26,772 bases of DNA from assembly GCA_023271515.1 (NCBI GenBank), contig JALPXQ010000008.1, positions 1-26,772 of the forward strand. The letters run 5' to 3'. A program made the position numbers and the translations under genes. The notes below the pieces were generated by a model. It ran no database searches, was not told the DNA's origin, and was given only the letters and a program-made list of their open reading frames with translations. Position 1 is the first letter of the stretch, and each line of letters opens with the position of its first letter. This document shows, in pieces, positions 1 through 20,233 of this stretch. Origin of the DNA: Dehalococcoidia bacterium. GTDB taxonomy: Bacteria > Chloroflexota > Dehalococcoidia > SZUA-161 > SpSt-899.

Positions 1-476
1 AGCACTCGGTACTCGGTCGGGTGGCGGTGATTGGGGGAGGCAATACGGCTGTTGACTGCGCTCGGACGGCCAGGCGCCTTGGAGGGGAGGAGGTGAGGAT
101 CATCTACCGTCGCTCCCGGGCCGAGATGCCGGCCTTGAGCGAAGAGGTAACTGCGGTGGAGGAGGAAGGGATAGGGATAGATTTTCTGACGGCACCGGTG
201 CGATTTCTCTCTGAAGGGGGAAGGCTTACGGGGATGGAGTGCATCAGGATGAAGCTCGGGGAGCCGGATGCCAGTGGCCGGGCCCGTCCGGTCCCCATTG
301 AGGGGTCGGAGTTCAGGATGGGTGTGGATACGGTGATAGCTGCTCTGGGACAGGTGCCGGAGACCGGATTCGTCCGGGAACTCGGGATATCACTGGGGAA
401 GACGGGCACGATAGAGACTGATCCCCGTACCGGGGCGACGAGCATCGAAGGGGTATTTGCCGGGGGGACGTGGTGA
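1..476 (+). CDS. NAD(P)H-binding pyridine nucleotide-disulfide oxidoreductase domain (GltD/SudA-like), 5'-partial. It runs off the window start and forms the N-terminal module of an HdrA-like fusion. The reading frame breaks in a G6 run at 462-467.
   Basis: Motifs VAVIGGGNTAVDCARTARRLG and, after the shift, GDVVTGPAFAIDAIAAGKRAA are typical of GltD-like oxidoreductases. There is no stop upstream of position 21 in frame. This ORF ends at TGA 477-479 only because of the frame change. Confidence 0.7.
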   Translation, partial: HSVLGRVAVIGGGNTAVDCARTARRLGGEEVRIIYRRSRAEMPALSEEVTAVEEEGIGIDFLTAPVRFLSEGGRLTGMECIRMKLGEPDASGRARPVPIEGSEFRMGVDTVIAALGQVPETGFVRELGISLGKTGTIETDPRTGATSIEGVFAGGTW

Positions 477-1918: not shown

Positions 1919-2689
1919 ATGGAGTATCGGGAAATAATCCTGCTGAAGCAGGGCGAAATGGCCAGGATCACCATCAACCGACCCCCGGTTAACGTGATGA
2001 CCTTGAACACCATAGCCGAGCTGAACCAGGCACTAGGGGGATTGAGGGAAGATCCCGAGGTCAAGGTGGTGATCATCCGGGGAAGCGGGGAGCGGGCCTT
2101 CTCCGCCGGCGTGGAGGTGGCCGACCATCTGGGCGAGAAGTTACCCTGGATGTTGGAGGAGTTTGGCCGGCTGTTTAAGTCGCTGAGGAATGTAGACAAA
2201 CCGATTGTAGCAGTGGTAAACGGCGTCGCTTTGGGAGGCGGTTGCGAGCTGGTGGCCGGGTGCGATATGGCTATCGCCTCGGACAAAGCTAAATTCGGTC
2301 AGCCGGAGATAAAGTAGGGTGTGAACCCTCCGCCGGCCAGCGTGCTTTTCCCCAAGATCATAGGGATGAAAAAGGCCCTGGAGTTGATCCTCACTGGCGA
2401 TTCCATAGATGCGTGGGAGGCGCAGAGGATAGGTCTGGTGAACAAAGTGGTCCCCCACGAAGAATTGGATCAGGCTGCGGAGGAATTCGCCAACCGACTT
2501 CTGGAGAAAAGCGGATACATACTGAAGTTGAGCCGGGAAGCCTTCTACAAGGTTAGCGAGATAAGCGACTATGAGAAGGCCCTTGACTTTATGAACTGCC
2601 GGTCGCGTAGGATCATGGAATCTGAGGACGCCGTCGAGGGACTGACCTCTTTCATCGAAAAGCGCAAGCCGGTCTGGAAAAACCGGTGA
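1919..2689 (+). pseudogene. Enoyl-CoA hydratase/isomerase (crotonase) family protein, interrupted by an in-frame TAG at 2315-2317 and split into 132 aa and 122 aa ORFs.
   Basis: The N-terminal part has the crotonase fold motifs (INRPPVNVMT, VIIRGSGERAFSAGVEV, VNGVALGGGCELVAGCDMAIA, KFGQPEIK). The C-terminal part continues in the same frame (KALELILTGD...). There is a Shine-Dalgarno site AGGAGGA upstream of ATG 1919. The TAG sits where the conserved Leu of FGQPEI-L-G is expected. Confidence 0.65.
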
Positions 2690-3806
2690 TGGCAAGTATA
2701 ATAGACGAACTGGAGCCCATCATTAATCCCCGAAGCATCGCCGTGATAGGAGCCTCAGATAATCCCGCTAAGCTGGGCTATCACTGCATGAAGAGCCTGA
2801 AAGAGAGCGGGCTTCAGTCCATATATCCCATAAATCCGCGCTCTTCGGAGATTTGGGGATTTCCGGCCTATTCCTCGCTGAGAGAGATAGATCAGGAAAT
2901 CGACCTGGCTATCGTGATTGTGCCGGCCTCTGCGGTTCCTTCAGCAATAGAGGATTGTGCCCGGAAGGGGATAAAAGGCATTGTCCTTATGACTGGTGGA
3001 TTCAGGGAAGCGGAAGATCTGGCGGGCTCCAGGATGAAATAGGTTTGCTGGCAAACAAGAGTAGAATCAGGGTGATCGGTTCCAACGCATTCGGTCCATC
3101 TAAATGCCTCCTTACCCCGGAATTCCTTGCTACTTGAGGGTAAGCCTTATAAGTCAAAGTGGCGAGATATGCCACCCTCCTTGCTGATGGAATCGGAGAA
3201 AGTAATCGGCTTTTCCAAGATCGTGGACCTAGGCAACCGATGCAAATTTTCCCAACATGCTGGAGTACCTGGCGGTGGACCTGGAGACCAGGGTGATCCT
3301 GATGTATCTCGAGGGGATAGATGATGCCCGCAGGCTTATCGAGATTGCTCGGTGAGTGGCGCCCCAAAAGCCCATAGTAGCCTTCAAGTCAGGAAAGATG
3401 ACCACTGCGGACAGAGCGGCTTATTCTCATACCGGTTCCCTGGCGGGAAAGCATAAGGTCTATCTCGCCGCTTTCAGGCAGGCCGGGATCCTGTTGGCAA
3501 GCGATTTCGAGGAATTGCTGGATATCTGACCCGAACGTTGATGCCCTCTTGTTTCTCTCTGCCTATGCCTCAGCCAACGAGCCCGTAATTAGAGCGCTCG
3601 CTGCAGTGCTGAGGGAGGAGATCGAGGCTCGCCGGAAGCCGATCCTCACCTGCTTCCCGACACCACTGCGAATCTGGGAGGAAAGGGTCGAGCTGGAGAA
3701 GAGCGGCATTCCGGTTTATGCTACGCCGGAGAGGGCGGCTAGATCTCTGGCAGGTTTGGTCTGCTACGGAGATATCCCGGCTTTGGCGCTATTCACGAAA
3801 ACTTGA
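2686..3806 (+). pseudogene. ADP-forming acetyl-CoA synthetase (acetate--CoA ligase) alpha subunit, heavily degraded. It has at least 4 to 5 frameshifts, an in-frame TGA at 3353-3355 and an apparent internal deletion of about 250 nt.
   Basis: An N-terminal CoA-binding domain is intact in ORF 2686-3042 (SIAVIGASDNPAKLGY...IVPASAVPSAIEDCARKGIKGIVLMTGGF). Homology then continues across three frames: LQDEIGLLANKSRIRVIGSN, HLNASLP, ISQSGEIC, GIGFSKIVDLGN, LEYLAVDLETRVILMYLEGIDDARRLIEIAR-TGA-VAPQKPIVAFKSGKMTTADRAAYSHTGSLAG. The C-terminal tail is in ORF 3549-3806. Total length is about 1.1 kb against about 1.4 kb expected. Confidence 0.7.
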
Positions 3807-4872
3807 ACCTCCCATATTTTTCCACCATTTTTTGGTCAATGGAAGGTCCCGTCTTGTGGATCACCTCCACTAAGTCTCTCATTTCCACATCCCTTGCAAT
3901 GCCGGTCTGGATATTCTCTCTAAAGGGGATCAGCGAGGCTTTAAGGCAGATCTGCCTTATGTCCGCGCCGCTATGACCCTCGGTCATCTGTGCCAGGTTG
4001 TCGAAATCAATATCCTCTGCCAGCGGCTTTCCCTGGAGATTCAATTCAAAAATCTTTTTCCTCGCCTGAGAATCAGGGAGAGGAACATAGATAGTCTCGT
4101 CAAATCTTCCCGGTCTAAGGGCAGCATGGTCAATGCTCCATGGCTCGTTGGTTGCCCCGATGAAGAGGAGGTTCTCATTTTTCGACTCCATCCCCTCCAT
4201 CTCCGCCAAAATCTGAGGAACAACCCGTTGCATCACCGTAGACCCGGAATCCTTCCTCTTTGGAATCAGTGCTTCAACCTCGTCAATAAAAATCACCGCT
4301 CTCTTCTGATTCCTCGCCGAAGAAAACAGCTTCGCTATATTCTGCTCACTCTCCCCGACCCACTTGCTCATAATTTCGCTCGGCTTTATGCTGAAGAATA
4401 CCGCATCCACTTCATTGGCAACCGCCTTTGCGATGTAAGTCTTGCCTGTGCCAGGGGGACCGTAGAGCAAGATTCCTCCCCCGGATCTGATCCCAAACCT
4501 CTTCGCCTCTTCAGGATATAGAAAAGGATAGATTATCTTGTTCTTGATCTCCTCTTTGATATTCTCCAGTCCTGCCACGTCGTCGAAGGTTACGGCAGGT
4601 CGTTCCTGCAAGATGAATTCTGCACCTTTTCCCCTTCCCGCAGCAGCCTCCTTTTCCTTAAGAGTGATAGACTTTGCCTTCTCCAGGAGTTTCTGGGCGT
4701 TTTCAACCCTTATCAGCTTCACCCTCCCCTGCGATTCGGAAGACGCATTAAAGAGTTGTCTGCTCGCCTGCAGGTAATAGTCTCTGGCTTTTCGCAACTC
4801 GCTTTGCGCTTCCGCCTTCATTGCCTCGGCGATATATTCTTCGGCTTTTTGAAGAAATACGTCAATGCTCAT
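3793..4872 (-). CDS. vps4: MIT-domain AAA+ ATPase, Vps4/CdvC-like (copy 1).
   Basis: It has an N-terminal three-helix MIT-like region. It has Walker A GPPGTGKT, Walker B IFIDEVE, arginine finger RPGRFDE and a Vps4-type C-terminal helix. Its start overlaps the stop of the upstream ESCRT-III-like gene. Confidence 0.85.
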   Translation of the reverse strand: MSIDVFLQKAEEYIAEAMKAEAQSELRKARDYYLQASRQLFNASSESQGRVKLIRVENAQKLLEKAKSITLKEKEAAAGRGKGAEFILQERPAVTFDDVAGLENIKEEIKNKIIYPFLYPEEAKRFGIRSGGGILLYGPPGTGKTYIAKAVANEVDAVFFSIKPSEIMSKWVGESEQNIAKLFSSARNQKRAVIFIDEVEALIPKRKDSGSTVMQRVVPQILAEMEGMESKNENLLFIGATNEPWSIDHAALRPGRFDETIYVPLPDSQARKKIFELNLQGKPLAEDIDFDNLAQMTEGHSGADIRQICLKASLIPFRENIQTGIARDVEMRDLVEVIHKTGPSIDQKMVEKYGRFKFS

Positions 4873-4875
4873 CGC

Positions 4876-5475
4876 CTACCCCTTCCGCATCATGTCCTCG
4901 ACTTCCTTGATGCCCCTGGAAATCCTCTCATCCAGGCCCTTTTCCTCAGTCTCTGCCTCCCCTTCCATTGTTTTTACAATTTCGTTGATGTCTCTATCAG
5001 AGAAACCTTCGGCACTCAAGATACCCTCGCTGGCCATGTCTAAAGTAGTGGACAACGCCTCGTCGATGCCCTCTGCCTGTGCCATCGCCTTCTCAAATTC
5101 CACCTGCATGCCGGCGATCTTTTCTACATCTGGGCCTTCGGTAATGGACTCGCTTATGTCCTTAGCAAAGGTTACAAAATCCCCGGAGATCTTGACCATC
5201 TCCCGTTGAAGTCTGGCCTCGTCCATCAGCAGGAGCATCCGCTGTCCCTTTCTTATCCGTTCCTGCAAGACCAGATATTTGGCAGCCTGCCTCTTCAAAA
5301 ACTTCTCTTCATTTAGTCTAGCCGCCTGCCTTCCCTGATCGTATATCGTCTTTTGCAGGTCCATCAGCTTCGAGATGTAGCCTTTAACCCTTGCTTTCGC
5401 CTTCCTGTACCTTATCTCCCTCTCGATCTCCTTCTCTTCCCTTGATTTTCCCTTCAACTTTTTCAATATGCCCAT
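4876..5475 (-). CDS. ESCRT-III/Snf7-like protein (copy 1). It is an all-helical protein of about 200 aa with a basic N-terminus and an acidic C-terminal tail.
   Basis: The N-terminus is MGILKKLKGKSREEK..., the sequence is predicted coiled coil, and the C-terminus is acidic (EGEAETEEKGLDERISRGIKEVEDMM, MIM-like). It is translationally coupled to the Vps4-like gene. There is a GGAG Shine-Dalgarno site 7 nt upstream of ATG 5475. Confidence 0.6.
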   Translation of the reverse strand: MGILKKLKGKSREEKEIEREIRYRKAKARVKGYISKLMDLQKTIYDQGRQAARLNEEKFLKRQAAKYLVLQERIRKGQRMLLLMDEARLQREMVKISGDFVTFAKDISESITEGPDVEKIAGMQVEFEKAMAQAEGIDEALSTTLDMASEGILSAEGFSDRDINEIVKTMEGEAETEEKGLDERISRGIKEVEDMMRKG

Positions 5476-5492
5476 TCTTTCACTCCTTTGAC

Positions 5493-5542
5493 GGGTTTAC
5501 GGTTCACGGTTCTGCATAGTCTAGAGTCTAGAGTCTAGAGTC
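5493..5542. promoter_or_regulatory. Upstream region of the ESCRT-III-like copy 1 gene. It carries a partial GGTTCACGGTTC motif followed by a (AGTCTAG)x3 heptad array, which equals three overlapping palindromic TCTAGA sites spaced 7 bp apart.
   Basis: The sequence is gggtttacggttcacggttctgcat agtctag agtctag agtctag agtc. It lies 20 to 70 nt upstream of ATG 5475 on the minus strand. Confidence 0.4.
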
Positions 5543-5561
5543 CCCCGCTCCACCCCTACCT

Positions 5562-6299
5562 TCAACCTTCAGCCTTCAGCCTATCCACCTGAGTAGCTAG
5601 GATTACAGTTATATTGTCCCTTCCGTCGGTCTCTTTCGCAGAGTTTATGAGCTTCTCGCAGGCTTCATCGAGGTCTTTTGAACTTATTATGATCCGTCTT
5701 ATTTCTTCACCCCGTAAGGAATCTGTCAATCCATCAGAGCACAACAACAGATATTGACCACAAATCCGGATCTCGTAGAGGTCAGGTTTTATATCGGCAT
5801 CCGTTCCCATCACCCTGGTAATGATATTCTTTTCCGGATGATCAAAGGCCTCCTCTTCTGAGATAATACCTCTATCCACCAGTTCTTGAACGAAGGAATG
5901 GTCCTTGGTCTGCTGCTTTATCTCCTCTCCTATCAGATAAGCCCTGCTGTCGCCTATATTTGCGATCACACATCTTTCTTCTTCAATCAAGGCAGCCACC
6001 AGCGTTGTGCCCATATTACTATAGTCTGGATTTTCCCGGGCTAAACTGTATATCTCCCTATTTGTCTTCTCAAAAGCCTGCTGAAGCAGCATCCTGAAGT
6101 CAGTAATCCCCTCGCTAAATCCTTTGTTCACCGCCTCTTCCAGCTCTATCACTGCCAGCCCACTGGCAATCTCGCCGGCGCTGTGCCCGCCCAGACCGTT
6201 GGCAACGGCAAGGAGGTAAATGTCGCCGAAGCGCGTTACCGCAAGGCTATCCTCGTTATTTGCTCTCTTCCCGCTGTCAGTAAGAGATGCTATCTTCAT
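5562..6299 (-). CDS. PP2C-family (PPM) Ser/Thr protein phosphatase.
   Basis: AVANGLGGHSAGEIAS, GTTLVAALI, ANIGDSRAY and LLCSDGLTD are the conserved PPM metal-binding motifs. Its start overlaps the kinase stop by 4 nt. Confidence 0.9.
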   Translation of the reverse strand: MKIASLTDSGKRANNEDSLAVTRFGDIYLLAVANGLGGHSAGEIASGLAVIELEEAVNKGFSEGITDFRMLLQQAFEKTNREIYSLARENPDYSNMGTTLVAALIEEERCVIANIGDSRAYLIGEEIKQQTKDHSFVQELVDRGIISEEEAFDHPEKNIITRVMGTDADIKPDLYEIRICGQYLLLCSDGLTDSLRGEEIRRIIISSKDLDEACEKLINSAKETDGRDNITVILATQVDRLKAEG

Positions 6300-8548
6300 C
6301 CTTCTGTCCTCGCTTTGCGGATAATTCTATCCATATCGTTTAATCTACGGGGTTCTAATGTTGGATCACGATGCTTAATGCAATGATTAAGGACACCGAT
6401 TTGCTGGTCGATCAAATCCTGTGTCTCACTGGATTTCACCTGGGTTTTTAAGGAATTCAGGTAATCGATACATTTGTTCAGCGCACTCAAGCGCGTCTCA
6501 CGATGTTCCGAGCTGCTATATGCCTGTCGTAAGAGCATATCCGACATCTCGCAATAGAGCGTTATTCTCTCCAGTCGTTCTATGGTTATCTTCACCTTTT
6601 GTTTGTGTTCTATTTCCAGAACGTCTGCCAAGTGATTATGGAGCTCTTCTATGCTCTGGTAGCGCCTCTCCTTTTCCTTCTCCAGACAGCGCATGATTAC
6701 AGGTTCGACGAATTTAGCTTCCTGGTTAATGCTTGAGGGTAAGGGAGGATCGTGCTTCTTTATTTTCTCCATTATGGCAGATTCATCGGCGGCTTCAAAG
6801 GGAGGCTTGCCGGTTACCAGCTCATAGAATATCTGACCGAGCTGGAATATGTCGGTTCTTCCATCTACCTTCCCTCCGCTTATCTGCTCCGGCGTGGCAT
6901 AGAGGGTAGTGTATCCTCTGGCTTGATCATCTGACTGCTTTGAAGCCCGTATCATCTTTGCCAGCCCCCAATCCACGATTTTCGGCTCCTTATTACCATC
7001 AAGCATGATATTGCCAGGCTTCAGGTCGAGGTGAAATACAGGTCGCGGTCTTCCATGAGCATATCTTAAGCCATCTGCTATCTTGAAGATCAGATGACCC
7101 GCTTTTCTCGGATCAAGCGGTATCAAATCCTCAATCGAGCCAGCCAGAAGCTCCATCTCGATATATGGCCTGGGATAAGAGCTATAGTCGTATATCGTGG
7201 CTATGTTCTTGTGATCGAGTTCCTTCCAGATTTGTATTTCGTCTATAAAGCTCTTGGCGGTCTTTTTATCATGGTACCTGGCGATCTTTATGGCCACCAT
7301 GGCACTGTCCTTCTTCCGCTGTGCGCGGTACACCCAGGAACTTCCACCCTCGCCGACGTATTTAGGTTGATGATAGTATTCATGGAGCTCCTCCGGAAAG
7401 GCGAACATCGGTTGGCCTTTTCTTATGCCAGGTCCAACTGCGGGTTCCAATGTTATATCCTCAACCTTTATTGGCTTTCGTACCTCGTCGCCTTTTGCGA
7501 CAGCGCTCCTTGCGCGGACCAGAGTATCGGTGCACAACCTTATATTTGCTGTGCAGGCATCAGTTGACTTTTCGATCCTTGTCTTTTCCTCTTCCAGACC
7601 GTGTTCGGCAGCAAGCTCACGAATGCCGTCGAAGTGTGTCTGAGCATTCCTGTATTGGTCTCTTGCTTTGAGGTATTCTCCCTTGTTGAACCACTTCTCG
7701 GCATCCTCGATTAGCCCGTTCCCGATTTCAATCTTTCCCTCCACCAAGCCTCTGTATGCCGTTGTTTTCAATTGGTTGTAGGTTGCGTTATCCGAGGAGA
7801 ACGATTCCAGGTACTTTATCACTTCTGAGAAGGCATTCTCCTTTTCCTTGCCTTTTTCCTTATTGGCCTGCTCGATTAACTTATCTCCCTTGTGCAGGAG
7901 GCATGCCTCGATGCTAACCTCCATGTTTGCTACTGCTCGATTGATCGTTGGCTCGTCCTCAAACCCGAATTTGCCTGCAACCCCAGCGCCTTTTGCATAC
8001 GTCTCTCTCGCTGACCGGAATCCTTCTCTGGCAGCATCGAAATCTCCTGCCTCAAACATTCTTTTCGCCTCGTTCACGGTCTTGTTTGCCTCATCAACGA
8101 GTGCAGCCATCTCTTTCCGGGCTCTGTTTACCGCAGCAGTCTTTATATCTTTCTCGATGCTTCCCATAGAGGGTTTAAGAGCCTCAACTATCTCCCCCTC
8201 GTTCCTTTCGCTCGCCAACTGCACCACACGGGTGTATTCTTCGAGAGCCCTTTCCCAGAGCGTTATGGCTTCTGAGTAATCTTCTCTCTGGTATGCCTCG
8301 CTGCCATCGTCGGCTATCTTTTTCGCTCTATCCAGAAGATATTCGGTAGTGGGTCTAGCGGCCAGTTGGGCCTTCTTGGTCAGCTCCAGCGCTCTTGCGA
8401 ACTCCTTCTTCTTCACCGATTCCGCCGCTTCCTTGAGGAGGCTCCTTGCCTCATCCAGGTTGGCGCCTATATGGTGCTGATTTATCAGACCTCTAGCAAC
8501 CTCCACTTCCTTGTGCAGCCCTTCGAGTTCTTTCACAATACTGCCCAT
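6296..8548 (-). CDS. Hanks-type Ser/Thr protein kinase with an N-terminal helical-repeat region of about 380 aa and a C-terminal tail of about 100 aa.
   Basis: The kinase domain spans about 6600-7400. Motifs are GEGGSSWVY, VAIK, HLDLKPGNIM, DWGLAK (a DFG variant) and YATPEQ. The start is ATG 8548 or TTG 8551, with GGAGG 8 nt upstream. Confidence 0.9.
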   Translation of the reverse strand: MGSIVKELEGLHKEVEVARGLINQHHIGANLDEARSLLKEAAESVKKKEFARALELTKKAQLAARPTTEYLLDRAKKIADDGSEAYQREDYSEAITLWERALEEYTRVVQLASERNEGEIVEALKPSMGSIEKDIKTAAVNRARKEMAALVDEANKTVNEAKRMFEAGDFDAAREGFRSARETYAKGAGVAGKFGFEDEPTINRAVANMEVSIEACLLHKGDKLIEQANKEKGKEKENAFSEVIKYLESFSSDNATYNQLKTTAYRGLVEGKIEIGNGLIEDAEKWFNKGEYLKARDQYRNAQTHFDGIRELAAEHGLEEEKTRIEKSTDACTANIRLCTDTLVRARSAVAKGDEVRKPIKVEDITLEPAVGPGIRKGQPMFAFPEELHEYYHQPKYVGEGGSSWVYRAQRKKDSAMVAIKIARYHDKKTAKSFIDEIQIWKELDHKNIATIYDYSSYPRPYIEMELLAGSIEDLIPLDPRKAGHLIFKIADGLRYAHGRPRPVFHLDLKPGNIMLDGNKEPKIVDWGLAKMIRASKQSDDQARGYTTLYATPEQISGGKVDGRTDIFQLGQIFYELVTGKPPFEAADESAIMEKIKKHDPPLPSSINQEAKFVEPVIMRCLEKEKERRYQSIEELHNHLADVLEIEHKQKVKITIERLERITLYCEMSDMLLRQAYSSSEHRETRLSALNKCIDYLNSLKTQVKSSETQDLIDQQIGVLNHCIKHRDPTLEPRRLNDMDRIIRKARTEG

Positions 8549-8553
8549 CAATT

Positions 8554-9735
8554 CTACCTCCTGCCTTGATTTACAACCTCATCTATCATCTCAAGAATCG
8601 CTCTCTTTTTCCTTTCAATCTCCTCCCTCTCGGCCTTCTTCTTTCGCCCGTAGGAAAAAATGCCTATTGACAGGATCACGGCAAAAGCAAGTGTCCCCAC
8701 GTAGATGTGATTGTTATTGATCGTCGGTGCAAAGTCTCTATAGTTGACCACGCCGTCTTGATCCAGGTCCATGGCAAGAGACTTTGCCCTTGTTGCCATC
8801 TCAAATGCCGTTTTATAATCTGCATCCTCAAATGCCTCCTCACTACCTGAAAGCAAAGCCTCGGCCATGGCTACATTGAATCCTCGTAGCTCTGCTACTC
8901 TAATTGCCTCCCTTGCCTGGTCGATCCCTTCAATGGCCAGTTCACCGTCTCTTTTAATCGTTTCTGCCGTAGTCTTTGCCTGCTCAGCAAGGGTTTTGGC
9001 GCGTCCAAAATGCCCTCCTGCAAGCGCCCTCTCGGCCTGCCGAAGAAGACCCTCAGCCTCTGTCATATCGAGCCCTTCGGCTCTCCCCCTTTGAATCGCT
9101 TTGGCGATCTCTTCAATGATAGCGGCAATTAGTGCTTCTTCCGATTCAACCTTTATCAGCCAGAGATCACTCTCACCTGCGCCAAAAGACATTGTCCAAC
9201 CGGTTACGATAAATCCGCCGTCATCGGTCTGCTGGACTGAGAGGCCCGAATCACTTTTTGCGCCACCGAATGTGCGGCTCCACTCCTTATTCCCCGCAGA
9301 ATCGGTCTTTATCAGCCAGAGATCCGACTCACCTGCGCCGAAAGACCCTGTCGTTCCGGTTACGATAAACCCGCCGTCAACCGTCTGCTGGACTGAGCAG
9401 CCCCAATCCCTGGCTGTGCCACCGAACGTGCGGCTCCACTGCTTATTACCCGCAGGATCGGTCTTTATCAGCCAGAGATCCGACTCACCTGCGCCAAAAG
9501 AGCGTGTCCAACCGGTTATGATAAATCCGCCGTCAGTTGTCTGCTGGACTGAGAGGCCCCGATCAGATTCTGCGCCACCAAATGTGCGGCTCCACTCCTT
9601 TGCCGGCGCTCGCTCTGTGGTCTCGTCAGCCACGGCCACGCCTACGAGAGGGAAAGGGAACGCCGTTACCAGCGCGGCAACCATAAGCACCACTGCCACC
9701 CCAAACAGGATTGGTGTCAGACTTTTCATGATCAA
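8554..9735 (-). CDS. Type-I membrane surface protein. It has a signal peptide, 3 tandem blade-like repeats of about 47 aa, a helical repeat, a DxDGVVN motif, a C-terminal TM helix and a conserved basic cytoplasmic tail.
   Basis: There is an N-terminal hydrophobic signal. There are three copies of [42 protein letters not shown]. The C-terminus is [55 protein letters not shown]. Confidence 0.75.
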
Positions 9736-10042: not shown

Positions 10043-11653
10043 CTACCCCCTGCCCTCATTTACAACCTCATCTATCATCTCAAGAATCGCTCTCTCTTTC
10101 CTTTCAATCTCCTCCTTCTCGGCCTTCTTCCGTCGGCGGCGAAAAGAAACGCCTGCTGATGCAGAGATAAGGCCCAGGACAAGAAGAAATGCTCCCATGT
10201 AGATATGATTGTTGTTGATCGTCGGTGCAAAGTCTTCATGGTTGACCACGCCGTCCCGATCCACATCTAAGGCAAGCGATTTTGCGGTTGCGGCCAGTTC
10301 TACCGCTCTTTCATACTCTCTATCATCAAATGCGCTCTCAGCCTGAGAAAGCGAGCTTTCGGCCTCCACAACATCGAAACCTTTTGCCCTTTCCTGAGAG
10401 ATTACCTGCCTTGCTTCTTCGATAGAGCTTCTTGCCAGTCTCAGTTCTCTGGTAATTTCTTCCGCTTTTGCCTTTGCCTGCCGGGCAAGGCTTATGGCTC
10501 CTCCAAAATCCCCTCCTGCAAGTGTCTCCTCAGCCTGCGAAAGTACACCCTCCGCCTCGGTCATATCGAGTCGTTTGTCTATCCCCTCCTCGATTGCATC
10601 CCTGGCCTGGTTGATCGCATCAAGCGCTGCCTGAGCTTCCCCTTTTACCTCTCGTGCGGTAACCTCTGCCTGCTGGGCAAGGCTCATGGCTTCTCCATAA
10701 TCCCCTCCTGCAAGCGCCCTCTCGGCCTGCCGCAGGAGATCCTCAGCCTCAGCCATATCGAGCCCTTCGGCTCTGCCTGTTGTTATTGCCTCCTTTGCTT
10801 GCTCGATCTGCTCCAGTGCCGCTGCCCTTCTAATCCCTTCTACCTTAGCCTCTGCCTGCTGGGCAAGGCTTATGGCTTGTTCAAAATCCCCTCCTGCAAG
10901 TGCCCGCTCGGCCTGCCGAAGGAGACGCTCGGCGTCTGTCATATCAAGCCCTTCGGCTGTTCTGGCTTCGATTACTTCTCTTGCTTTGTCGATCTCTTCA
11001 ATCGCTGCTTCAGCATCCTCTTTAATGCCTTCTGCTTTAGTCTTTGCCTGCTCAGCAAGGCTTACGGCTCTTTCAAAATCGTCTGCTGCAAGCGCCCTCT
11101 CGGCCTGCCGGAGGATATCCTCAGCTTCAGCCATGTTGAGCCCTTCGGCTCTCCCGGCTTCGATTGCCTCCCTTGCCTGGGCGATGGCATTGATGGCAAA
11201 TTGAGGCATGGGGATTTCAACAAGGTTATGGTGGATGATCTGCGCGGCATGCTGGACTATTATCCGCGGCCGCACCCTATCGGCGAGGATAGAAACCTCG
11301 CCCGGGACTTGAATAAGGTTATGGTGGATGATCTGCGCGGCATGCTGGATTATAATGCGGGGCATCACCTCACCTGCGAGGCTCACCAGGGTCTCCGCAG
11401 GCTCCACAAGGTCAAATTCTTGCACGCTGTCGGCGTCTTCCACGACAATCTCAGGGCCGCTTGCGGCATGCACCCTGGAATTTACCGCCAGATATGCCGA
11501 TACGGCCAGCACCAACGCGGCCAGAATCAAGACCATCAGGGGGATTCTCCCCCTGAAACCCCCTGAAGAGCGGTCATCCTTAGGATTTTTAAAGGAGCTT
11601 CGCTCCTTTATTCTCCAGGGCGGTTTACACTGGTTTATCCTTATCCTGAACAA
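10043..11653 (-). CDS. Type-I membrane surface protein, paralog of 8554-9735. It has a signal anchor, a 2x 31-aa tandem repeat and 5 helical repeats of about 37 aa. It ends with a DxDGVVN motif, a TM helix and the conserved tail.
   Basis: The C-terminus [72 protein letters not shown] is nearly identical to the upstream paralog at the DNA level. It contains repeats of the form [32 protein letters not shown]. The true start may be the internal Met near 11536 (MVLILAALVLAVSAYLA). Confidence 0.7.
   Translation of the reverse strand: MFRIRINQCKPPWRIKERSSFKNPKDDRSSGGFRGRIPLMVLILAALVLAVSAYLAVNSRVHAASGPEIVVEDADSVQEFDLVEPAETLVSLAGEVMPRIIIQHAAQIIHHNLIQVPGEVSILADRVRPRIIVQHAAQIIHHNLVEIPMPQFAINAIAQAREAIEAGRAEGLNMAEAEDILRQAERALAADDFERAVSLAEQAKTKAEGIKEDAEAAIEEIDKAREVIEARTAEGLDMTDAERLLRQAERALAGGDFEQAISLAQQAEAKVEGIRRAAALEQIEQAKEAITTGRAEGLDMAEAEDLLRQAERALAGGDYGEAMSLAQQAEVTAREVKGEAQAALDAINQARDAIEEGIDKRLDMTEAEGVLSQAEETLAGGDFGGAISLARQAKAKAEEITRELRLARSSIEEARQVISQERAKGFDVVEAESSLSQAESAFDDREYERAVELAATAKSLALDVDRDGVVNHEDFAPTINNNHIYMGAFLLVLGLISASAGVSFRRRRKKAEKEEIERKERAILEMIDEVVNEGRG
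11222..11407. repeat. 93-bp tandem direct repeat (2 copies) within surface protein gene 10043-11653.
   Basis: aaggttatggtggatgatctgcgcggcatgctgga occurs at 11222 and 11315. It encodes the duplicated 31-aa segment PRIIIQHAAQIIHHNL. Confidence 0.8.
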
Positions 11654-11814
11654 AGGTTCACCTCCCGTCGCGAGCGCATGCCCGAGATGGCAATCATGCC
11701 TTGTCCATCAGTCTAAAGGGTGGAGCAAAGACCAGGTTCATCCCTCTCGGTAGACAAGGACGATAGCAAATGATCCTGCCCACACCCTCGCGATTTGGTG
11801 GAACACATCTGGCC

Positions 11815-12513
11815 TTAGCTGAGCCGGTGAGAGTGTTCCATGTGAGTCTGCTCCCGCAACTCGCTCTCCATCAATATTAAGGGGGGGGGGTCGGTCATGA
11901 ACGACCTCTCAAAGACGGTTAAGGCCCCGGGTATCTTGAGGTTAAAGCTGTCATGGTCAACAATGATCATCATCCTATCAGCATCGGGGTGTCTGAAGTC
12001 GTAGTGTTTTACCTCGGCAATACCCACTCCAGCAGCCGTGGTTACCTGCATCAGTACTCTCTCCAGCCTTGTGCTGCCCAAATCCCCCAGGTCAATTATC
12101 CTGGCTACCGGATGCTCGCGGCCATAAAAGGCCACTATCCAACCATTCCGGTGGAGAAAGACATGTGCATCCCACTCTTCGTCGTGCCCAGGCACTCCGA
12201 CTGAGCCGATAATGTATTCATCCGTCTCGCGCTCTATCGTTCTGAATGCCCCCCTTGCCCTCACCAGATCAATCTCCCGGCCCACATTGGTAAAGGCCGA
12301 GATTCCCGCCTGCTCCTCAAGGAAATTGGCCCCCGCTGTTCCGGCGGCAAACGCCGGCCGCGCCAGGGTGATCAGTCCGGATATTCCGGCCGCCGCGCGG
12401 GGAGTCTCGCCGCCCCCCGCCCCGGAACCCGGTGGGATAAAGACCGGAACCGCGGCAACGATCACCGCCAGGACTACCAAAGCCCCACCAATCCTCCAGA
12501 TATGCTTCCTCAT
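11815..12513 (-). CDS. Secreted or membrane-anchored protein of unknown function, with an N-terminal TM or signal sequence.
   Basis: It is a 232 aa ORF with a hydrophobic N-terminus (GGALVVLAVIVAAVPVFI). It contains a G10 homopolymer at 11881-11890 that encodes PPP near the C-terminus. Confidence 0.5.
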   Translation of the reverse strand: MRKHIWRIGGALVVLAVIVAAVPVFIPPGSGAGGGETPRAAAGISGLITLARPAFAAGTAGANFLEEQAGISAFTNVGREIDLVRARGAFRTIERETDEYIIGSVGVPGHDEEWDAHVFLHRNGWIVAFYGREHPVARIIDLGDLGSTRLERVLMQVTTAAGVGIAEVKHYDFRHPDADRMMIIVDHDSFNLKIPGALTVFERSFMTDPPPLILMESELREQTHMEHSHRLS

Positions 12514-12595: not shown

Positions 12596-15500
12596 TCAGG
12601 CAGCTCGTCTTTTTATGAGTAAGACGATCAGTCCTAGCGCTGCAATTCCGGCTGCGATCCACGGGTTCGCCTGAACAAGCTGAATAAGCTGAGCAAGTAG
12701 TCTTTCACCAATGCGAAGTAGTCTTTCGCCAATATCAAGTAGTCTTTCACCAATGTCTGGTGCCTGGGGCAAGACCACCTCGACTATTGTTGAGAAACTA
12801 TTTATCACCCCATCGTTATCTGCTATCGTCAGTGTTACCATATAGTCTCCAGCAACTGAAAAGCTATGCTCGATTACCCTACCAGTTCCAGTGGTTCCAT
12901 CCCCAAAGTCCCATTCATAGGATATTATCTCGCCATCAGGGTCAGACGAACCAGACGCATCGAAGGTGATGGGCTGATCTACAATCATCTCCTCCGGGGA
13001 GTATGCAAAAGATGCGATTGGTTGTTGAAGCATTCTCTGTTCCTCAAATACCCCGTCGCCATCAGCATCCGTCTTCATGGTAACCCCTGCCTGGACGGGA
13101 ACTTCTGTATCAATAACAAATCGGTGTGTTGTAGTCTCTGTCGTGGGGACATCAGTAATAGCAAAACTCTCAATTTGTCCTTCCACGCTAGAAATCGTTG
13201 TTAATCGATATGTTGCCTCCTCTATACCTGCAACCTCTAAGTAATAGATGCCAGTTGGAGCAAATATAGTAACAATCTTATTTTCCGTATCATACATTGA
13301 ATATGGAATTTCTTCTTTTACTACTCCATCTACTAAACCAGTAACTCGTCCCTGAGAATCGTAAACCCGTAACTCTCCAGGACTGGCAAATGCTACAACT
13401 CTGAGGTCAGCAGGCAATATATTCAGAAATTCTCTTCTGATAAAATGTGCTGCGATATTCTTGTGAGAATCCATCCTGATAGTGGTAACGGGTGCATGTA
13501 CATCTGCAATAGTCCCAACATCTCCTTTCCAACCAACAAACTTCCAACCTGGAGCAGGATATGCCCTAATTTCTACTTGTTTTAGTTCTCCTCTAGGAAA
13601 AATAGTATCTCCAGGTTTATTAACTGTCCCCTCGCCAATAATATCCATTGAAAGTGTTACATCTTCGGAAATGAAGGTAACCAATGCAAACCCTATTATT
13701 GGATTCCCCCTCCAAAAATCTTGATATACACCTATTCCAAGACTTACAAGAGTATTTCCTGCAGCTCTAATAAGATTAATAGGAGCAAGGAGACGGTCTA
13801 TAACCCACCCTTTACCATACTCCCTAACTGTATCAGATTTTGCAATATCAAGTAAAAGTGGTGGTAAAGAATTAAGTACGACTTCACGCCCTTCAGGACA
13901 GAATACAATAGTTCTAGGAGTTAACACAAGCTGCCCCATCTGTAATAATGTTCTAGATTGAATATATTCTACAACTTCTTTTAAATGCTCATGATCCTCA
14001 AATTCTATATAAAGTTGTAATGCAAACTTAGGTTCAGCCGGAACTCCAAATACTCCTAATGCTGCTGATAATAATTCCATTGCTATTGCAACGTGCACTA
14101 TCGCCATTTCAACTTCCAATATATCTCCAGGTAGAAGAGTATTAAGCTTCACCGTGTATGTTACGCTTCCCTTAGGAGGGACTAGTCTAAAATAATTACC
14201 AAAACTTTCTTTCTGAAGATGTTCCATAAAGCCATCTATACTTTCTAAAGTTACATCTTCCCTAATAAACCGAGGTTTAAATTCAACCCACATATCTAAA
14301 GAGTTGTGTACAGTTAGCTCAACAATGCGCTTCTCCTCATCGACATATATAGGAGCAGATCCCCTTATACGCCAATCATCACCGCTAATTTTAAAAAACG
14401 CTGTTTTATATGGTAGTGCCGGCGGGGTGACTTCTAGTGCCTCGGTGAAGGTCCTTGAAGCCAGGTGCCGATCCCCAGCATCTATCCTGCCGTTGTTGTT
14501 GACATCCTCCACCAGAGAGACGAGCAGGTTATACCTGCCTGGGGGTGCATCTGTCGGCATTACAAACGAACGCTGGACGGTGCTGGAACCTGAAACGATG
14601 GCGACCTGGCGATCATTGGCCGGATCGCTCAGAGGCGATCTCCCGGGCAACTGGATGCTGGCCCCCAACAGAACCGTCCTTGTGGGCCCTGGATTTGCCA
14701 CGTTGTATGTAATGGTGATCGTCTCTCCGGCCGCAGCGGTGCTGGGTGACGGGTGAGCAGATGTGATTGTTGGGTCTGGTGGTGGCGCCGGCGGGGTGAC
14801 TTGTAGTGCCCCGGTGAAGGTCCTTGAAGCCAGGTGCCGATCCCCGGCATCTATCCTGCCGTTGTTGTTGACATCCTCCACCAGAGAGACGAGCAGGTTA
14901 TACCTGCCTGGGGGTGCATCTGTCGGCATTACAAACGAACGCTGGACGGTGCTGGAACCTGAAACGATGGCGACCTGGCGATCATTGGCCGGATCGCTCA
15001 GAGGCGATCTCCCGGGCAACTGGATGCTGGCCCCCAACAGAACCGTCCTTGTGGGCCCTGGATTTGCCACGTTGTATGCAATGGTGATCGTCTCTCCGGC
15101 CGTAGCCGTGCTGGGTGACGGGTGAGCAGATGTGATTGTTGGGGCTGGTGGTGGTGCCGCCAGTAGACGAAGCCTGCTGGGCGTGGAGCTGCCAATGTTG
15201 TTATTCTCATTCGATTCGGTGACTTGTTTAAAGCCATCAACAAAGACTGTCACATAGTAATCCCCCGGGGCAGGAACTGCTGATGGGATGGCGTTAGTGG
15301 TGATAGTGAGCGTTCTAGAGGCACCAGGACCGAGCGAGGCTACAGGGAAATTGCCCAAACCGTGGCGAGTTCCCCATCGACGGGTGGATAGAGAAACACG
15401 GAGGTGGAATGAGCCCGAGGCGGCATCACCCCGGTTTTTCACTGTAAAAGCAACCGAAATTTCATCGCCGTGAGCTACCTCAGCAGGGTCGAAGGTGACG

Positions 15501-15631
15501 CGGGTCGTCACAGTAAGATCAGGGAGTCCAGCGCTGGCTATCGCGGTGGGTACTGTCAAAGCGCTCGCGCTGAACAGCAGCAGGGTGGTCATAAGGATGG
15601 CGAAAATGCTGAGAGTAGTTCTCTTTTGCAT
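12596..15631 (-). CDS. Large surface adhesin-like protein of 1011 aa. It has a signal peptide, a CARDB-like domain, 2 identical Ig-like repeats of 123 aa, a central domain of unknown function, a PKD domain and a C-terminal TM anchor preceded by 3x IGERLL.
   Basis: The N-terminal signal is followed by a CARDB-like segment (PDLTVTTRVTFDPAEVAHGDEISVAFTVKNRGDAASG). The PKD motif is ITFDASGSSDPDGEIISYEWDFGDGTTGTG...GDYMVTLTIADNDG. The C-terminus is PWIAAGIAALGLIVLLIKRRAA. There is an AGGAGG Shine-Dalgarno site upstream of ATG 15631. Confidence 0.8.
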   Translation of the reverse strand: MQKRTTLSIFAILMTTLLLFSASALTVPTAIASAGLPDLTVTTRVTFDPAEVAHGDEISVAFTVKNRGDAASGSFHLRVSLSTRRWGTRHGLGNFPVASLGPGASRTLTITTNAIPSAVPAPGDYYVTVFVDGFKQVTESNENNNIGSSTPSRLRLLAAPPPAPTITSAHPSPSTATAGETITIAYNVANPGPTRTVLLGASIQLPGRSPLSDPANDRQVAIVSGSSTVQRSFVMPTDAPPGRYNLLVSLVEDVNNNGRIDAGDRHLASRTFTGALQVTPPAPPPDPTITSAHPSPSTAAAGETITITYNVANPGPTRTVLLGASIQLPGRSPLSDPANDRQVAIVSGSSTVQRSFVMPTDAPPGRYNLLVSLVEDVNNNGRIDAGDRHLASRTFTEALEVTPPALPYKTAFFKISGDDWRIRGSAPIYVDEEKRIVELTVHNSLDMWVEFKPRFIREDVTLESIDGFMEHLQKESFGNYFRLVPPKGSVTYTVKLNTLLPGDILEVEMAIVHVAIAMELLSAALGVFGVPAEPKFALQLYIEFEDHEHLKEVVEYIQSRTLLQMGQLVLTPRTIVFCPEGREVVLNSLPPLLLDIAKSDTVREYGKGWVIDRLLAPINLIRAAGNTLVSLGIGVYQDFWRGNPIIGFALVTFISEDVTLSMDIIGEGTVNKPGDTIFPRGELKQVEIRAYPAPGWKFVGWKGDVGTIADVHAPVTTIRMDSHKNIAAHFIRREFLNILPADLRVVAFASPGELRVYDSQGRVTGLVDGVVKEEIPYSMYDTENKIVTIFAPTGIYYLEVAGIEEATYRLTTISSVEGQIESFAITDVPTTETTTHRFVIDTEVPVQAGVTMKTDADGDGVFEEQRMLQQPIASFAYSPEEMIVDQPITFDASGSSDPDGEIISYEWDFGDGTTGTGRVIEHSFSVAGDYMVTLTIADNDGVINSFSTIVEVVLPQAPDIGERLLDIGERLLRIGERLLAQLIQLVQANPWIAAGIAALGLIVLLIKRRAA
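14400..15137. repeat. Perfect tandem duplication, 2 copies of 369 bp differing by a few SNPs, inside adhesin gene 12596-15631.
   Basis: The block starting near 14421 (ggcggggtgacttctagtgcc...) recurs at 14790. The two ORF-track antisense ORFs 14304-14756 and 14763-15125 are near-identical. The duplication encodes a duplicated Ig-like module of 123 aa. Confidence 0.9.
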
Positions 15632-15752: not shown

Positions 15753-17009
15753 TCAGCCTACCTTATATTCCCTGGCAGCCTCTATCAACTCCCTGAACAT
15801 CTCACCCTCTCCCGTTCCGCTTAATTCTTTGACTGCTTTTGGATACCAAGAAGCAAGCACAGTCTTCTTCCCTTTCAACACCTGGTCGAAGTCTTCCATC
15901 GTTATCTCTCTCCTGGGGGTCATCTCTTTGATCCTCTCCCCCAGGGGAATCATTGCCGCCTTCTCACAGATATCTGCGATCTCAGCGCTGGCATATCCCT
16001 CGGTGATCTCTGCCAGTCTCTGCAGACTGACTGATCTGGAGACAGGCTTATTCTTCAGATTTATCTCCAGGATTTTTTTGCGAGCCTCAATATCGGGATG
16101 GGGGAGGAAAACCGTTGTATCGAACCTCCCTGACCTTCTCAAAGCAACATCAACAGCCCAGGGGCGATTGGTAGCTGCAAGAACAAGATAGCGTTTAGTT
16201 GTGCCTTTCGCTTCCAGACCATCCATCTGTGATAACAGCTCGCTTACCAGGCTTCTCTCGTGCCCCTCCATTGACCCGGAGCGCTCCCCTGCCAGGGAGT
16301 CGAACTCATCGAAGAATAACATTGCCTTTTCATAGCTTCTGGCAACGTTGAAGATTTCCTTGATGTTTTTCTCGCTTTCTCCTACGTATTTGTCCTTGAT
16401 ATCGCTGCCTTTTAGACTGACGAAGGCTGCATCGGATTCGGCCGCCGCCGCCGCCGCGAGCATCGTTTTTCCGCATCCCGGAGGACCGTATAAGAGAATC
16501 CCCCCACCCGGTTTAACCCCAAAGTACTCGTACTCCTCCGGGTACTTGAAGGGATAAACAATTGCCTCCTTGATGTTCTCCTTTACTCTGGCTAAACCGG
16601 CGATATCGCTGAATCTTATCTTCGGTTTTTCCGCCAGGATCAGACCTTTAACCCTCTCCCCTGTCTTTTCTTTCTCTATCCTCCCCCCGGGTGTCTTTTT
16701 AACCCCTTCCTCCGGTGGTATCATGCCATCCGTATATACTTTAACAGTCCCTTCTTTGAGCCCCTCGGCGATCTCCCTGAATTTCTTGGATCTGTCCAGC
16801 AGCTCTTTTCGCTTATCCCTCGGTGACATATCTGCAAGATGCTCCAGGAATTTAGCGCACTTTAAGTACTCCACACTGGCTTTCGCCATGCTGCCTTCAT
16901 CATAGTGCCTCCTGGCCAGATTAAGGGATTTCTTATACTCGGCTTGGACCGCATCTCTCAGCTCCATACTTATTCCCTCCATAGTCGGGTTATCGGGTTC
17001 AGGGTTCAC
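15753..17009 (-). CDS. vps4: MIT-domain AAA+ ATPase, Vps4/CdvC-like (copy 2). The likely true start is ATG 16967 (MELRD...).
   Basis: It has an MIT-like N-terminus. It has Walker A GPPGCGKT, Walker B LFFDEFD, RSGRFDT and a Vps4-like C-terminus. The ORF-track start 17009 is GTG. An internal ATG at 16967 is preceded by GGAGGGA with a 6 nt spacer. Confidence 0.85.
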   Translation of the reverse strand: MNPEPDNPTMEGISMELRDAVQAEYKKSLNLARRHYDEGSMAKASVEYLKCAKFLEHLADMSPRDKRKELLDRSKKFREIAEGLKEGTVKVYTDGMIPPEEGVKKTPGGRIEKEKTGERVKGLILAEKPKIRFSDIAGLARVKENIKEAIVYPFKYPEEYEYFGVKPGGGILLYGPPGCGKTMLAAAAAAESDAAFVSLKGSDIKDKYVGESEKNIKEIFNVARSYEKAMLFFDEFDSLAGERSGSMEGHERSLVSELLSQMDGLEAKGTTKRYLVLAATNRPWAVDVALRRSGRFDTTVFLPHPDIEARKKILEINLKNKPVSRSVSLQRLAEITEGYASAEIADICEKAAMIPLGERIKEMTPRREITMEDFDQVLKGKKTVLASWYPKAVKELSGTGEGEMFRELIEAAREYKVG

Positions 17010-17106
17010 GGGTCACGGTTGATGGTTCACGGTTCATGGTTATTTGTCTAACCGTTCAATCTTGATCGCTCTAACCTTGAACCGTGAACCCCGGCAACTT
17101 TGAATC
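16987..17106. repeat. GGTTCA-rich inverted-repeat intergenic element (copy B), in the 5' region of the Vps4-like copy 2 gene.
   Basis: The sequence is gggttatcgggttcagggttcacgggtcacggttgatggttcacggttcatgg...taaccgttcaatcttgatcg...cttgaaccgtgaacc. The arms GGTTCACGGTTCA and TGAACCGTGAACC form a dyad. Confidence 0.7.
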
Positions 17107-17113
17107 TAAGCAG

Positions 17114-17743: not shown

Positions 17744-17771
17744 TTGAGCCAGTTTGTCTTTGCTGTTTGTA

Positions 17772-17879
17772 GCTAGTCAGGTTGTCAGGTTCACGGTTCA
17801 TGGTAGTTTGTCTAACCGTTCAATCTTGATCGGTTGATCGGTGTAACCTTGAACCTCGGAACTTTGAACCTGACTAGTC
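17772..17879. repeat. GGTTCA inverted-repeat element (copy C1), flanked by a perfect 12-nt inverted repeat gctagtcaggtt / aacctgactagc.
   Basis: It has the same core as copy B (caggttgtcaggttcacggttca...tctaaccgttcaatcttgatcgg...taaccttgaacctcggaactttgaacctga). It lies upstream of the ESCRT-III-like copy 2 gene. Confidence 0.7.
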
Positions 17880-17925
17880 TTTGCTGCCTACATTTCATTC
17901 TTTCCTGTGACTTCTCACCTCCTTT

Positions 17926-17997
17926 CAGGTTGTCAGGTTCACGGTTCAATCTTGATCGGGCTAACCTTGAATCGTGAACCCCGGAACTTTGAACCTG
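17926..17997. repeat. GGTTCA inverted-repeat element (copy C2).
   Basis: The sequence is caggttgtcaggttcacggttcaatcttgatcgggctaaccttgaatcgtgaaccccggaactttgaacctg. It is a direct repeat of the C1 core 147 bp downstream. Confidence 0.7.
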
Positions 17998-18002
17998 AGT
18001 AC

Positions 18003-18295: not shown

Positions 18296-18355
18296 AATTA
18301 CCTCCTACTACCCTCATTTCATCTCCACCTGGTATGTAAGGATTCCCCAAAATTC

Positions 18356-19978: not shown

Positions 19979-19990
19979 TTCATAATCCCC

Positions 19991-20227: not shown

Positions 20228-20233
20228 CGTAAA

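Follow-up and report, generated by a model that had tools for sequence, protein, structure and literature searches.

The question raised by this locus is whether a gene for a large redox protein is truly broken at a run of guanines, and what broke it. The DNA under study, hereafter the window, is the complete 26,772-bp contig of a Dehalococcoidia assembly; its first gene, cut by the contig start and ending at position 1849, encodes a protein of the HdrL type, that is, an HdrA-like protein carrying an NfnB/GltD-like module. An earlier reading of the letters (the original prediction) had noted six guanines at 462–467 with a −1 frame change that splits a GltD-like/HdrA-like fusion, and it had left two options, a pseudogenised gene or a miscalled homopolymer; the run and the frame change are borne out by the coordinates and by both open reading frames (ORFs), and the two options are still the right pair to weigh. 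The G6 run very probably reflects the recent loss of one G from a slippage-prone G7 tract, in an otherwise intact HdrL-type gene that is maintained by selection; as for the cause of the contraction, slipped-strand variation in living cells is preferred, with about an even chance of being correct.

The Frame Break at the G-Run

The run at 462–467 reads GGGGGG, with C461 before it and A468 after it. The frame-3 ORF at 21–476 ends ...SIEGVFAGGTW and is closed by TGA at 474–476; the frame-2 ORF at 470–1849 reads (M)VTGPAFAIDAIAAGKRAA..., and the switch from frame 3 to frame 2 is a change of −1 (or +2) that falls exactly on the G-run. Insertion of one G at the run restores the frame, as had been proposed: the product is a continuous 615-aa partial protein, ...GVFAGGDVVTGPAF..., with 95% identity over 100% to its best match, P0001, and the siblings described below have seven G at this site. 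Both the Pfam domain Pyr_redox_2 (residues 6–171) and the GltD-like NCBIfam models (residues 5–270) align uninterrupted through the junction, which lies at residues 155/156 of the restored protein.

All the features of this gene lie on the plus strand. The upstream piece, in frame 3 and cut by the contig start, occupies 3–476; it corresponds to the C-terminal part of an NfnB/GltD-like module binding NAD(P)H and flavin adenine dinucleotide (FAD), and it is ∼50% identical to the NfnB-like modules of solved structures. The downstream piece, in frame 2, runs from Asp156 to the TAG at 1847–1849 (467–1849) and has been deposited as a separate 458-aa coding sequence, MCL0059158.1, named "4Fe-4S binding protein", with its start at GTG 473; the entry P0130 has the same sequence as the window when translated from 473.

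As for the exact site, the break falls within the C-terminal FAD-binding motif of the GltD/NfnB-like module (GVFAGG|DVVTGP), the same motif being found in NfnB and GltD structures; the F-A-G-G|D codons are at 456–469, and the Asp codon of FAGGD, GAC at 467–469, is in the shifted frame. In 116 homologs, the F, the second G and the D of FAGGD are 99–100% conserved. The predicted splitting of the gene thus stands, but the break is inside the GltD/NfnB module, ∼100 residues ahead of the HdrA-like part, and not at a domain boundary. It should be noted that a G-run is ordinary in itself, the window having three G runs and six C runs of at least six bases; what goes beyond chance expectation is the coincidence of the frame change with the position of the run.

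Tract Length Among Sibling Contigs

Regarding the closest relatives, contig L001 of the Dehalococcoidia assembly GCA_023271655.1, which encodes P0001, is syntenic with the window, with genes for the HdrL-type protein, an enoyl-CoA hydratase, a CoA-binding/ligase protein, an AAA ATPase, a 199-aa protein, a PP2C protein and a Ser/Thr kinase. In L001 and in four more contigs, L002, L003, L004 and L006 (all five 96–97% identical to the window), the site reads GCC GGG GGG GAC, a G7 tract, and the tract is the only insertion or deletion (indel) in 1,859 aligned bases between the window and these relatives; the siblings being G7 and the window G6, the window tract has therefore contracted by one G. 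Breaks of this kind are also present in three more deposited assemblies, which were found through the 90% clusters of P0001 and P0002 and whose DNA was then fetched: L007 and L009 are G6, L008 is G8, and the deposited upstream fragments end ...GVFAGGTW.

Four further contigs (P0125, P0127, P0128 and P0134) read through the site at protein level, and the 13 contigs divide into nine in frame, three with G6 and one with G8; at DNA level the tract lengths are G6 in three contigs, G7 in five and G8 in one, all of them from amplified single-cell assemblies. The G7 tract is in frame and both G6 and G8 are out of frame, a one-base change being enough to switch the HdrL frame. The window, L007 and L008 do not agree in the single-nucleotide polymorphisms located at most 50 nt from the tract, and therefore at least three independent events have to be assumed. 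As features of the assembled sequences, the contraction and the G6/G7/G8 polymorphism on different haplotypes are demonstrated by these data. A homopolymer indel is ordinary, and the sole unusual property here is its recurrence, in both directions, among sibling single-cell genomes. One more candidate, the metagenome contig L005 matched by DNA pattern, was discarded as a chance match in an unrelated gene.

Age of the Breaks and Selection on the Gene

The sequence that follows the break still shows the marks of purifying selection. Downstream of the break, the ratio of nonsynonymous to synonymous substitution rates (dN/dS) of the window versus L001 is 0.20, not above that of the intact neighboring genes, and the overall range for the HdrL-type gene is 0.20–0.35. 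Codon changes private to the window are 19 synonymous and 14 nonsynonymous; singletons downstream of the tract are 20 synonymous and 13 nonsynonymous in the four shifted alleles, and eight synonymous and three nonsynonymous in five in-frame alleles. No second lesion, either indel or stop, was found in the shifted alleles, and the window copy has a single 1-nt indel in 1.86 kb. The lack of a second lesion, together with purifying selection, therefore makes each break very recent in comparison with the ∼1% sequence divergence, and this recency is demonstrated.

The lone possible sign of relaxation in the window copy is a private substitution downstream of the break, Gly508 (GGA at 1523–1525) in GCC-G-GPRDI: the siblings have Glu at this position and 116 of the 117 more remote homologs carry Gln or Glu, it aligns with the Gln of HdrA GACQGPKDIP, and the change from Glu to Gly is possibly damaging. 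When, in a search for relaxed selection, the amino acid changes specific to the window were polarized with distant homologs, four were clearly derived in the window versus two derived in the clade, these being the only clear cases.

Identity and Architecture of the Gene

A search of a large protein collection with the restored protein returned thousands of homologs. Among the 120 best, one chain spans the junction in 118 and none is split there, a result that rules out two separate genes in the orthologs; the two exceptions are P0045, with a different N-terminal architecture, and P0074, a contig-edge fragment. The comparison with intact orthologs that the original prediction had recommended thus returns a single polypeptide, also in the four sibling contigs that span the gene, where an open frame of ∼1,144 codons is present; one such uninterrupted ORF is absent from the window copy.

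In L001 and L004, the frame stays open on the upstream side as far as METRTGVYICHCG..., which is typical of an HdrA N-terminus; full-length relatives have a ∼290-aa HdrA N-terminal half upstream of the insert, and the window contig starts inside the gene. In the 1,141-aa sibling product, residues 2–287 match HdrA 3–291, residues 291–791 match NfnB/GltD-like chains (9BOV, 9N5U, 4YLF, 5JCA), and residues 782–1138 match HdrA 291–648; the two HdrA segments enclose the NfnB-like one, and the protein is therefore read as an HdrA with an NfnB-like insert. By sequence comparison, the full-length product is an HdrA with a ∼500-aa NfnB/GltD-like module placed in its inserted ferredoxin domain. The predicted joining of a GltD-type NAD(P)H module with HdrA FAD and ferredoxin modules agrees with the Pfam, NCBIfam and structure matches; the term "fusion" fits only in part, because the module is inserted within the HdrA ferredoxin domain and not linked to it N-to-C.

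Of the module, only the C-terminal ∼270 residues fall within the window. The dinucleotide-binding motif of its NfnB/GltD-like Rossmann fold, GGGNTAVD at 33–56, is taken by us to be the NAD(P)H site. It aligns with GGGNTAMD and GAGNTAMD of chains 9bov_A and 4ylf_B, respectively. HdrA homology resumes after the insert at CIECRECKRRC (773–805), a CxxCxxCxxxC [4Fe-4S] motif that aligns to 5odc_A from residue 291 and represents the second half of the HdrA inserted ferredoxin domain. The HdrA-like C-terminal half (761–1840), made of part of the thioredoxin-reductase-like FAD domain and of the C-terminal ferredoxin domain, was aligned by phmmer to 5odc_A residues 291–649 with an E value of 5e-113, and the HdrA2/HdrA models of NCBIfam match residues 254–613 of the restored protein. 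The C-terminal ferredoxin domain, with two [4Fe-4S] clusters, is at 1628–1789 (Pfam Fer4 families, residues 543–596); its motifs are CAGCGLCEKIC at 1649–1681 and CKGCGACAVTC at 1742–1774.

In the intact enzyme, electrons would pass from NAD(P)H to the FAD and Fe–S clusters of the insert, and from there to the HdrA flavin and its ferredoxin domains, as homology to Nfn and Hdr structures suggests. NAD(P)H-dependent electron transfer by HdrL-type proteins is accordingly a prediction from homology; to our knowledge, no HdrL has been characterized biochemically, and function has been assigned by inference in all cases.

Comparison with Known Systems

The NAD(P)H-linked HdrA architecture pointed out by the original prediction is real, yet it has already been described: the gene is a member of the known HdrL/HdrA-NfnB family and not a new kind of enzyme. 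HdrL of Desulfobacterium autotrophicum, with the same architecture, was described in 2009 (PMC2702500), and HdrL was detected in the Syntrophobacter proteome (PMC5947623). The HdrL proteins share with the window gene the large size and HdrA type, the GltD-like NAD(P)H-binding module with its predicted NAD(P)H-to-Hdr link, and the vicinity, here seen in L001, of MvhD/FlpD-like and other Hdr-like genes. They differ in that they often contain selenocysteine, whereas the window gene needs no TGA-encoded selenocysteine, and in that they adjoin mvhD, dsr or hdrBC, whereas the neighbors in the window are two dead genes, one for an enoyl-CoA hydratase and one for an ADP-forming CoA-ligase-like protein. 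The second precedent is the HdrA with NfnB insertion of ANME-1, described in 2022 (PMC9012536): HdrA9/10/11 carry ∼500 aa of NfnB-like sequence within the inserted ferredoxin domain, with identical topology, but they are archaeal and the window gene is bacterial.

As for the separate modules, the insert aligns end to end, with E values of 1e-109 to 1e-125, to NfnB of Thermotoga maritima (4YLF/4YRY) and to the modules in 9BOV, 9N5U and 8OH5, with which it shares the motifs GGGNTAxD and GVFAGGD(I/V)VTG, the latter being the one hit by the frameshift; it is here a domain within HdrA, whereas in those systems it forms a subunit, either of NfnAB or of a complex of the formate-dehydrogenase type. 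The frame-2 ORF corresponds to residues 291–649 of HdrA from Methanothermococcus thermolithotrophicus (5ODC), C-terminal domain with two [4Fe-4S] clusters included; it differs from it by the Gly at the Gln position mentioned above and by the NfnB-like insert of the gene, and hdrB and hdrC are absent from the window.

One of the two exceptions among the homologs is worth describing: P0045 (499 aa, Chloroflexi assembly) combines an HdrA C-terminal half, which shares 88% identity with that of the window, with another ferredoxin-like N-terminus, and it lacks an NfnB-like module. From this protein, the HdrA C-terminal half seems to have been shuffled between architectures.

Origin of the Tract-Length Variation

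In the preferred course of events, the sequence coding for A-G-G-D would be GCC GGG GGG GAC, with its G7 tract contracted to G6 in the window by slipped-strand mispairing in the cells; the tract would be a hot spot flipping between six, seven and eight G in the natural Dehalococcoidia population. Translation of the G6 allele would stop three codons further on, inside the FAD-binding motif, leaving the following 459 codons out of frame, and the shifted allele would yield no functional enzyme. Slippage would thus supply short-lived, possibly reversible null alleles of a gene otherwise kept by selection. The closest precedent is glpK of Mycobacterium tuberculosis, with reversible frameshifts in a GGGGGGG tract (PMC6667613, 10.1101/717272, PMC10334774): also there a seven-G tract of a metabolic gene gains or loses one base, null alleles are frequent among close relatives and the rest of the ORF is intact. 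The difference is that the M. tuberculosis variation was confirmed by Sanger sequencing in cultured isolates and linked to a phenotype, whereas the window tract is known only from amplified single-cell assemblies.

The main competitor, a serious one that we rate somewhat below an even chance, is that in the cell the gene is G7 and intact, and that G6 and G8 arose in vitro by polymerase slippage during single-cell amplification or library preparation, the slip becoming the consensus through thin or clonal coverage beside a contig break. The relatives are titled "isolate AH-958-xxx ... NODE_n", which is consistent with single-cell amplified genomes assembled with SPAdes; the window contig starts inside a palindromic repeat able to form a hairpin, and it contains a second homopolymer frameshift, at a G10 run (11881–11890).

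Comparable runs served as controls. At other runs of at least five bases, 198 pairwise comparisons gave no length difference, and the same was true of 24 comparisons at runs of at least six; the second G7 of the HdrL gene is in frame in the four contigs out of four that reach it. The other coding G7 of the window, at 23530–23536 (AGC GGG GGG GAT), belongs to a gene whose 516-aa product is full length in 10 of 10 assemblies, its G7 state in the other nine being deduced from 97–99% identity and not read at DNA level; judged by accession order, the 10 assemblies apparently include those holding the window, L007 and L008, that is, three of the four with a shifted tract. A likelihood-ratio test, computed by hand from these counts, rejected a single error rate shared by the two G7 tracts (approximately p = 0.02). 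A general miscalling of homopolymers in these assemblies is rejected by the control runs and by these G7 tracts.

Other data count against an in vitro origin. For four of 13 assemblies to have a consensus error, the slip rate would have to be far higher than we take to be usual for a seven-base run; four other contigs that start 81–528 nt upstream of the tract are in frame; and the first 461 nt of the window contig are free of any other indel, their substitutions being haplotypes common to other assemblies. Gene loss at the locus is moreover real, as documented by the ligase deletions in common with L007 and by the hydratase gene, which has a TAG in the window and is deleted in four siblings; the two contigs with a heavily decayed ligase gene, the window and L007, both carry G6, a coincidence with a chance of ∼0.08. 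We therefore favor, at about even odds, an origin of the variation in the cells over one during whole-genome amplification.

Several points weigh against this preference. The four shifted contigs all end 228–461 nt upstream of the tract, and the four contigs that span the gene are all G7, an association between contig end and shift that is not significant (Fisher's exact test by hand, ∼0.14). Breaks within ∼530 nt upstream of the tract affect eight of 12 sibling contigs, most members of the cluster are partial or oddly joined in the HdrL gene, and P0129 and P0137 have odd junctions inside the gene and look chimeric; the region of the breaks also contains the palindromic repeat and G-rich motifs. 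Frequent breaks, chimeras, palindrome and G-rich motifs therefore make this a trouble zone for amplification and assembly. Moreover, four recent, independent events, in both directions (−1 and +1 on unrelated haplotypes), with no secondary lesion and under normal purifying selection, form precisely the pattern that slippage in vitro would leave, without any added assumption, and a 31% share of null alleles is hard to reach by mutation–selection balance at a seven-base tract. All the data on tract length come from assembled contigs. Of the literature consulted, nothing usable was found on mismatch repair in Dehalococcoidia, and the main text of the method paper gave no number for the indel rate of single-cell assemblies. 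G-quadruplex motifs occur near the tract, and any role for them is speculation.

A stronger version of slipped-strand variation in vivo regards the tract as a genuine contingency switch: in single cells of an uncultivated Dehalococcoidia population, selection that fluctuates would favor reversible slippage between G6, G7 and G8, by which HdrL would be switched off and on. We consider it unlikely, and still less likely is a variant in which the G6 allele would be decoded in part through −1 slippage at the run.

A long-standing pseudogene is far less probable. HdrL would then have been lost long ago, as part of the decay of the HdrL–hydratase–ligase block, with G6 inherited; the next two genes are indeed broken in the window, the ligase remnant is old, with deletions both private and common with L007, the window and L007 are both G6, and the private Glu-to-Gly change hits a well-kept position. 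Against this, the window and L007 have different sequences immediately beside the tract, so G6 was not simply inherited along with the dead ligase; the idea is rejected on the dN/dS after the break, as low as in the intact neighbors, and on the absence of further lesions, and the synonymous-to-nonsynonymous counts given above also oppose it.

Equally improbable is functional recoding, by which the full-length protein would be made through a −1 ribosomal frameshift or transcriptional slippage, or by which the two pieces would work as a split enzyme. On GGGGGG, the P-site tRNA-Gly could slip back by one base and still pair perfectly, giving the wild-type product, a G-rich Shine–Dalgarno-like GAAGGGG lies 8 nt upstream, and the downstream ORF is under purifying selection in every shifted allele; read-through of G6 would give the junction-spanning peptide GVFAGGDVVTGP / GVFAGGDVVTGPAFAIDAIAAGK. 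But in the zero frame, where the context is GC C GGG GGG ACG, C GGG GGG does not fit the canonical X XXY YYZ heptamer, and the P-site codon would re-pair with CGG, with a first-position mismatch; folds of 468–530, 468–560 and 440–540 are weaker than shuffled controls (z from +0.9 to +1.5), and the Rfam search of the window gave no matches. The five siblings with G7 need no shift, the G8 sibling would need the opposite one, and none of the 120 homologs is split at the site; since the break runs through the Rossmann-fold FAD motif, a working split enzyme is unlikely. The programmed frameshift signals suggested for checking are thus absent, and a programmed frameshift is rejected on the weak folds, the missing Rfam match, the noncanonical heptamer and the lack of conservation of the shift in orthologs.

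Consequences for Annotation and Biology

Little is gained for enzymology, the architecture being known and intact copies 95% identical being already in public databases. The consequences for annotation are more tangible: in at least four assemblies the HdrL gene is deposited as "FAD-dependent oxidoreductase, partial" plus the 458-aa "4Fe-4S binding protein", and the intact siblings (L001 9170–12595; L003, L004 and L006) are deposited at 845–870 aa versus the ∼1,144-codon open frame, so that these public annotations appear to start ∼280 residues too late.

If the variation is real, approximately one-third of the sampled cells would carry a fresh null allele of a conserved gene of energy metabolism; such homopolymer phase variation, observed directly in single cells, would be a rarity outside pathogens. 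A true contingency switch would mean that a core cytoplasmic redox enzyme is phase-variable in an environmental anaerobe. If instead the variation is an artefact, the tract would be a reproducible, context-dependent error site of single-cell genomics, for which pseudogene counts should allow.

The Palindromic Repeat at the Contig Start

The window begins within the 3′ arm of a palindromic insertion of heptamer repeats in the HdrL gene (positions 1–29, plus strand; base 1 corresponds to L001 10746). In L001 the element spans 10687–10761, has the form (TTCCGAG)n ... (ACTCAGC/ACTCGGT)n and is located in the HdrL coding sequence of some haplotypes; it includes an inverted repeat with 26-nt arms (10689–10714 and 10736–10761) that are 77% complementary, with a DNA fold z-score of −2.3. 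The element adds ∼24 residues (SEFRVPSSEVGGGDSALSTQHSVL) to the protein and is absent from siblings such as P0125 and from distant homologs. This palindromic repeat probably explains the assembly break at the window start; a local repeat within the locus had been considered as the cause, but a self-BLAST of L001 gave none overlapping the break zone, and the palindromic heptamer repeat was found instead.

Heptamer tandem repeats also occur between genes, at 5490–5542 and 16996–17041 (units ACGGTTC, AGTCTAG and GGTTCAC), with copy numbers that differ among siblings. Their units resemble those of the HdrL element, and a single family of small repeats may be spreading in the genome.

Neighboring Pseudogenes and Probable Recombination

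The two genes next to HdrL are true pseudogenes. The enoyl-CoA hydratase gene (1919–2689; Pfam ECH_1, E value 2e-59) has TAG at 2315–2317 versus CTG (Leu) in L001 and L004, a two-base change, and it is largely deleted in L002, L003, L006 and L007; with a dN/dS of 0.19 versus L001, the gene must have acquired its nonsense change recently, and no sign of pyrrolysine or of an altered genetic code was found for this TAG. The CoA-binding/succinyl-CoA-ligase-like gene (2689–3806), which encodes 471 aa where it is intact in siblings, has deletions of 7, 17, 1, 7, 7 and 5 nt plus one of 254 nt. Those of 7, 1 and 254 nt are common to L007, which also has private ones, and L004 shares the 254-nt deletion alone; being common to independent assemblies, these lesions are therefore real in vivo and not artefacts. 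When decay is judged by the presence of several lesions, the ligase gene is decayed (seven deletions), the hydratase gene partly so (one TAG), and the HdrL gene is not.

Synonymous divergence from L001 is 0.12–0.22 left of position 3525 and 0.02–0.05 right of it (3526–9033), and the jump coincides with the 254-nt deletion point; the HdrL amino acid haplotypes are, in addition, mosaic among siblings. Both observations suggest frequent homologous recombination in the population. Directly 3′ of the HdrL stop codon there is also an insertion/deletion polymorphism, a 493-bp segment with a gene of the PDDEXK_3 family, which lies between HdrL and the hydratase gene in L001 (12605–13096) and in L004 and is absent from the window.

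The Rest of the Window

The remaining ∼23 kb is taken up by long intact minus-strand ORFs (kinases, PP2C, AAA ATPases, zinc-ribbon/SPFH and CARDB/PKD proteins), with one exception, namely the second homopolymer frameshift at the G10 run 11881–11890, within the ORF region 11741–12513 (minus strand). The only homolog, P0153 (258 aa), aligns with 12513–11887 in one frame (93%) and with 11887–11741 in another (88%), and therefore the deposited 232-aa protein has a wrong C-terminus; judging from its amino acid sequence, the tract equivalent to G10 would be interrupted in P0153.

Two similar gene sets, at 3793–8548 and 15753–26732 (minus strand), each include a Ser/Thr kinase, an AAA ATPase and an uncharacterized coiled-coil-like protein; the PP2C phosphatase is present only in the first set. 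The window further encodes a zinc-ribbon/SPFH pair and a transglutaminase/CDC48_N protein, and the whole has the appearance of a signaling island. Tandem repeats of 156 nt (9151–9600; 2.9 copies, 84% matches) lie in the ORF 8554–9729 (minus strand); its 391-aa product has a hydrophobic segment at the N-terminus. The number of repeats differs from cell to cell, being higher in L001 and L006. Finally, the gene of the 1,011-aa CARDB/PKD-domain protein (12596–15631, minus strand) contains a 369-nt tandem duplication, 97% identical (14411–15159), and a stretch of low GC content, 40% at 13–14 kb versus ∼50% elsewhere.

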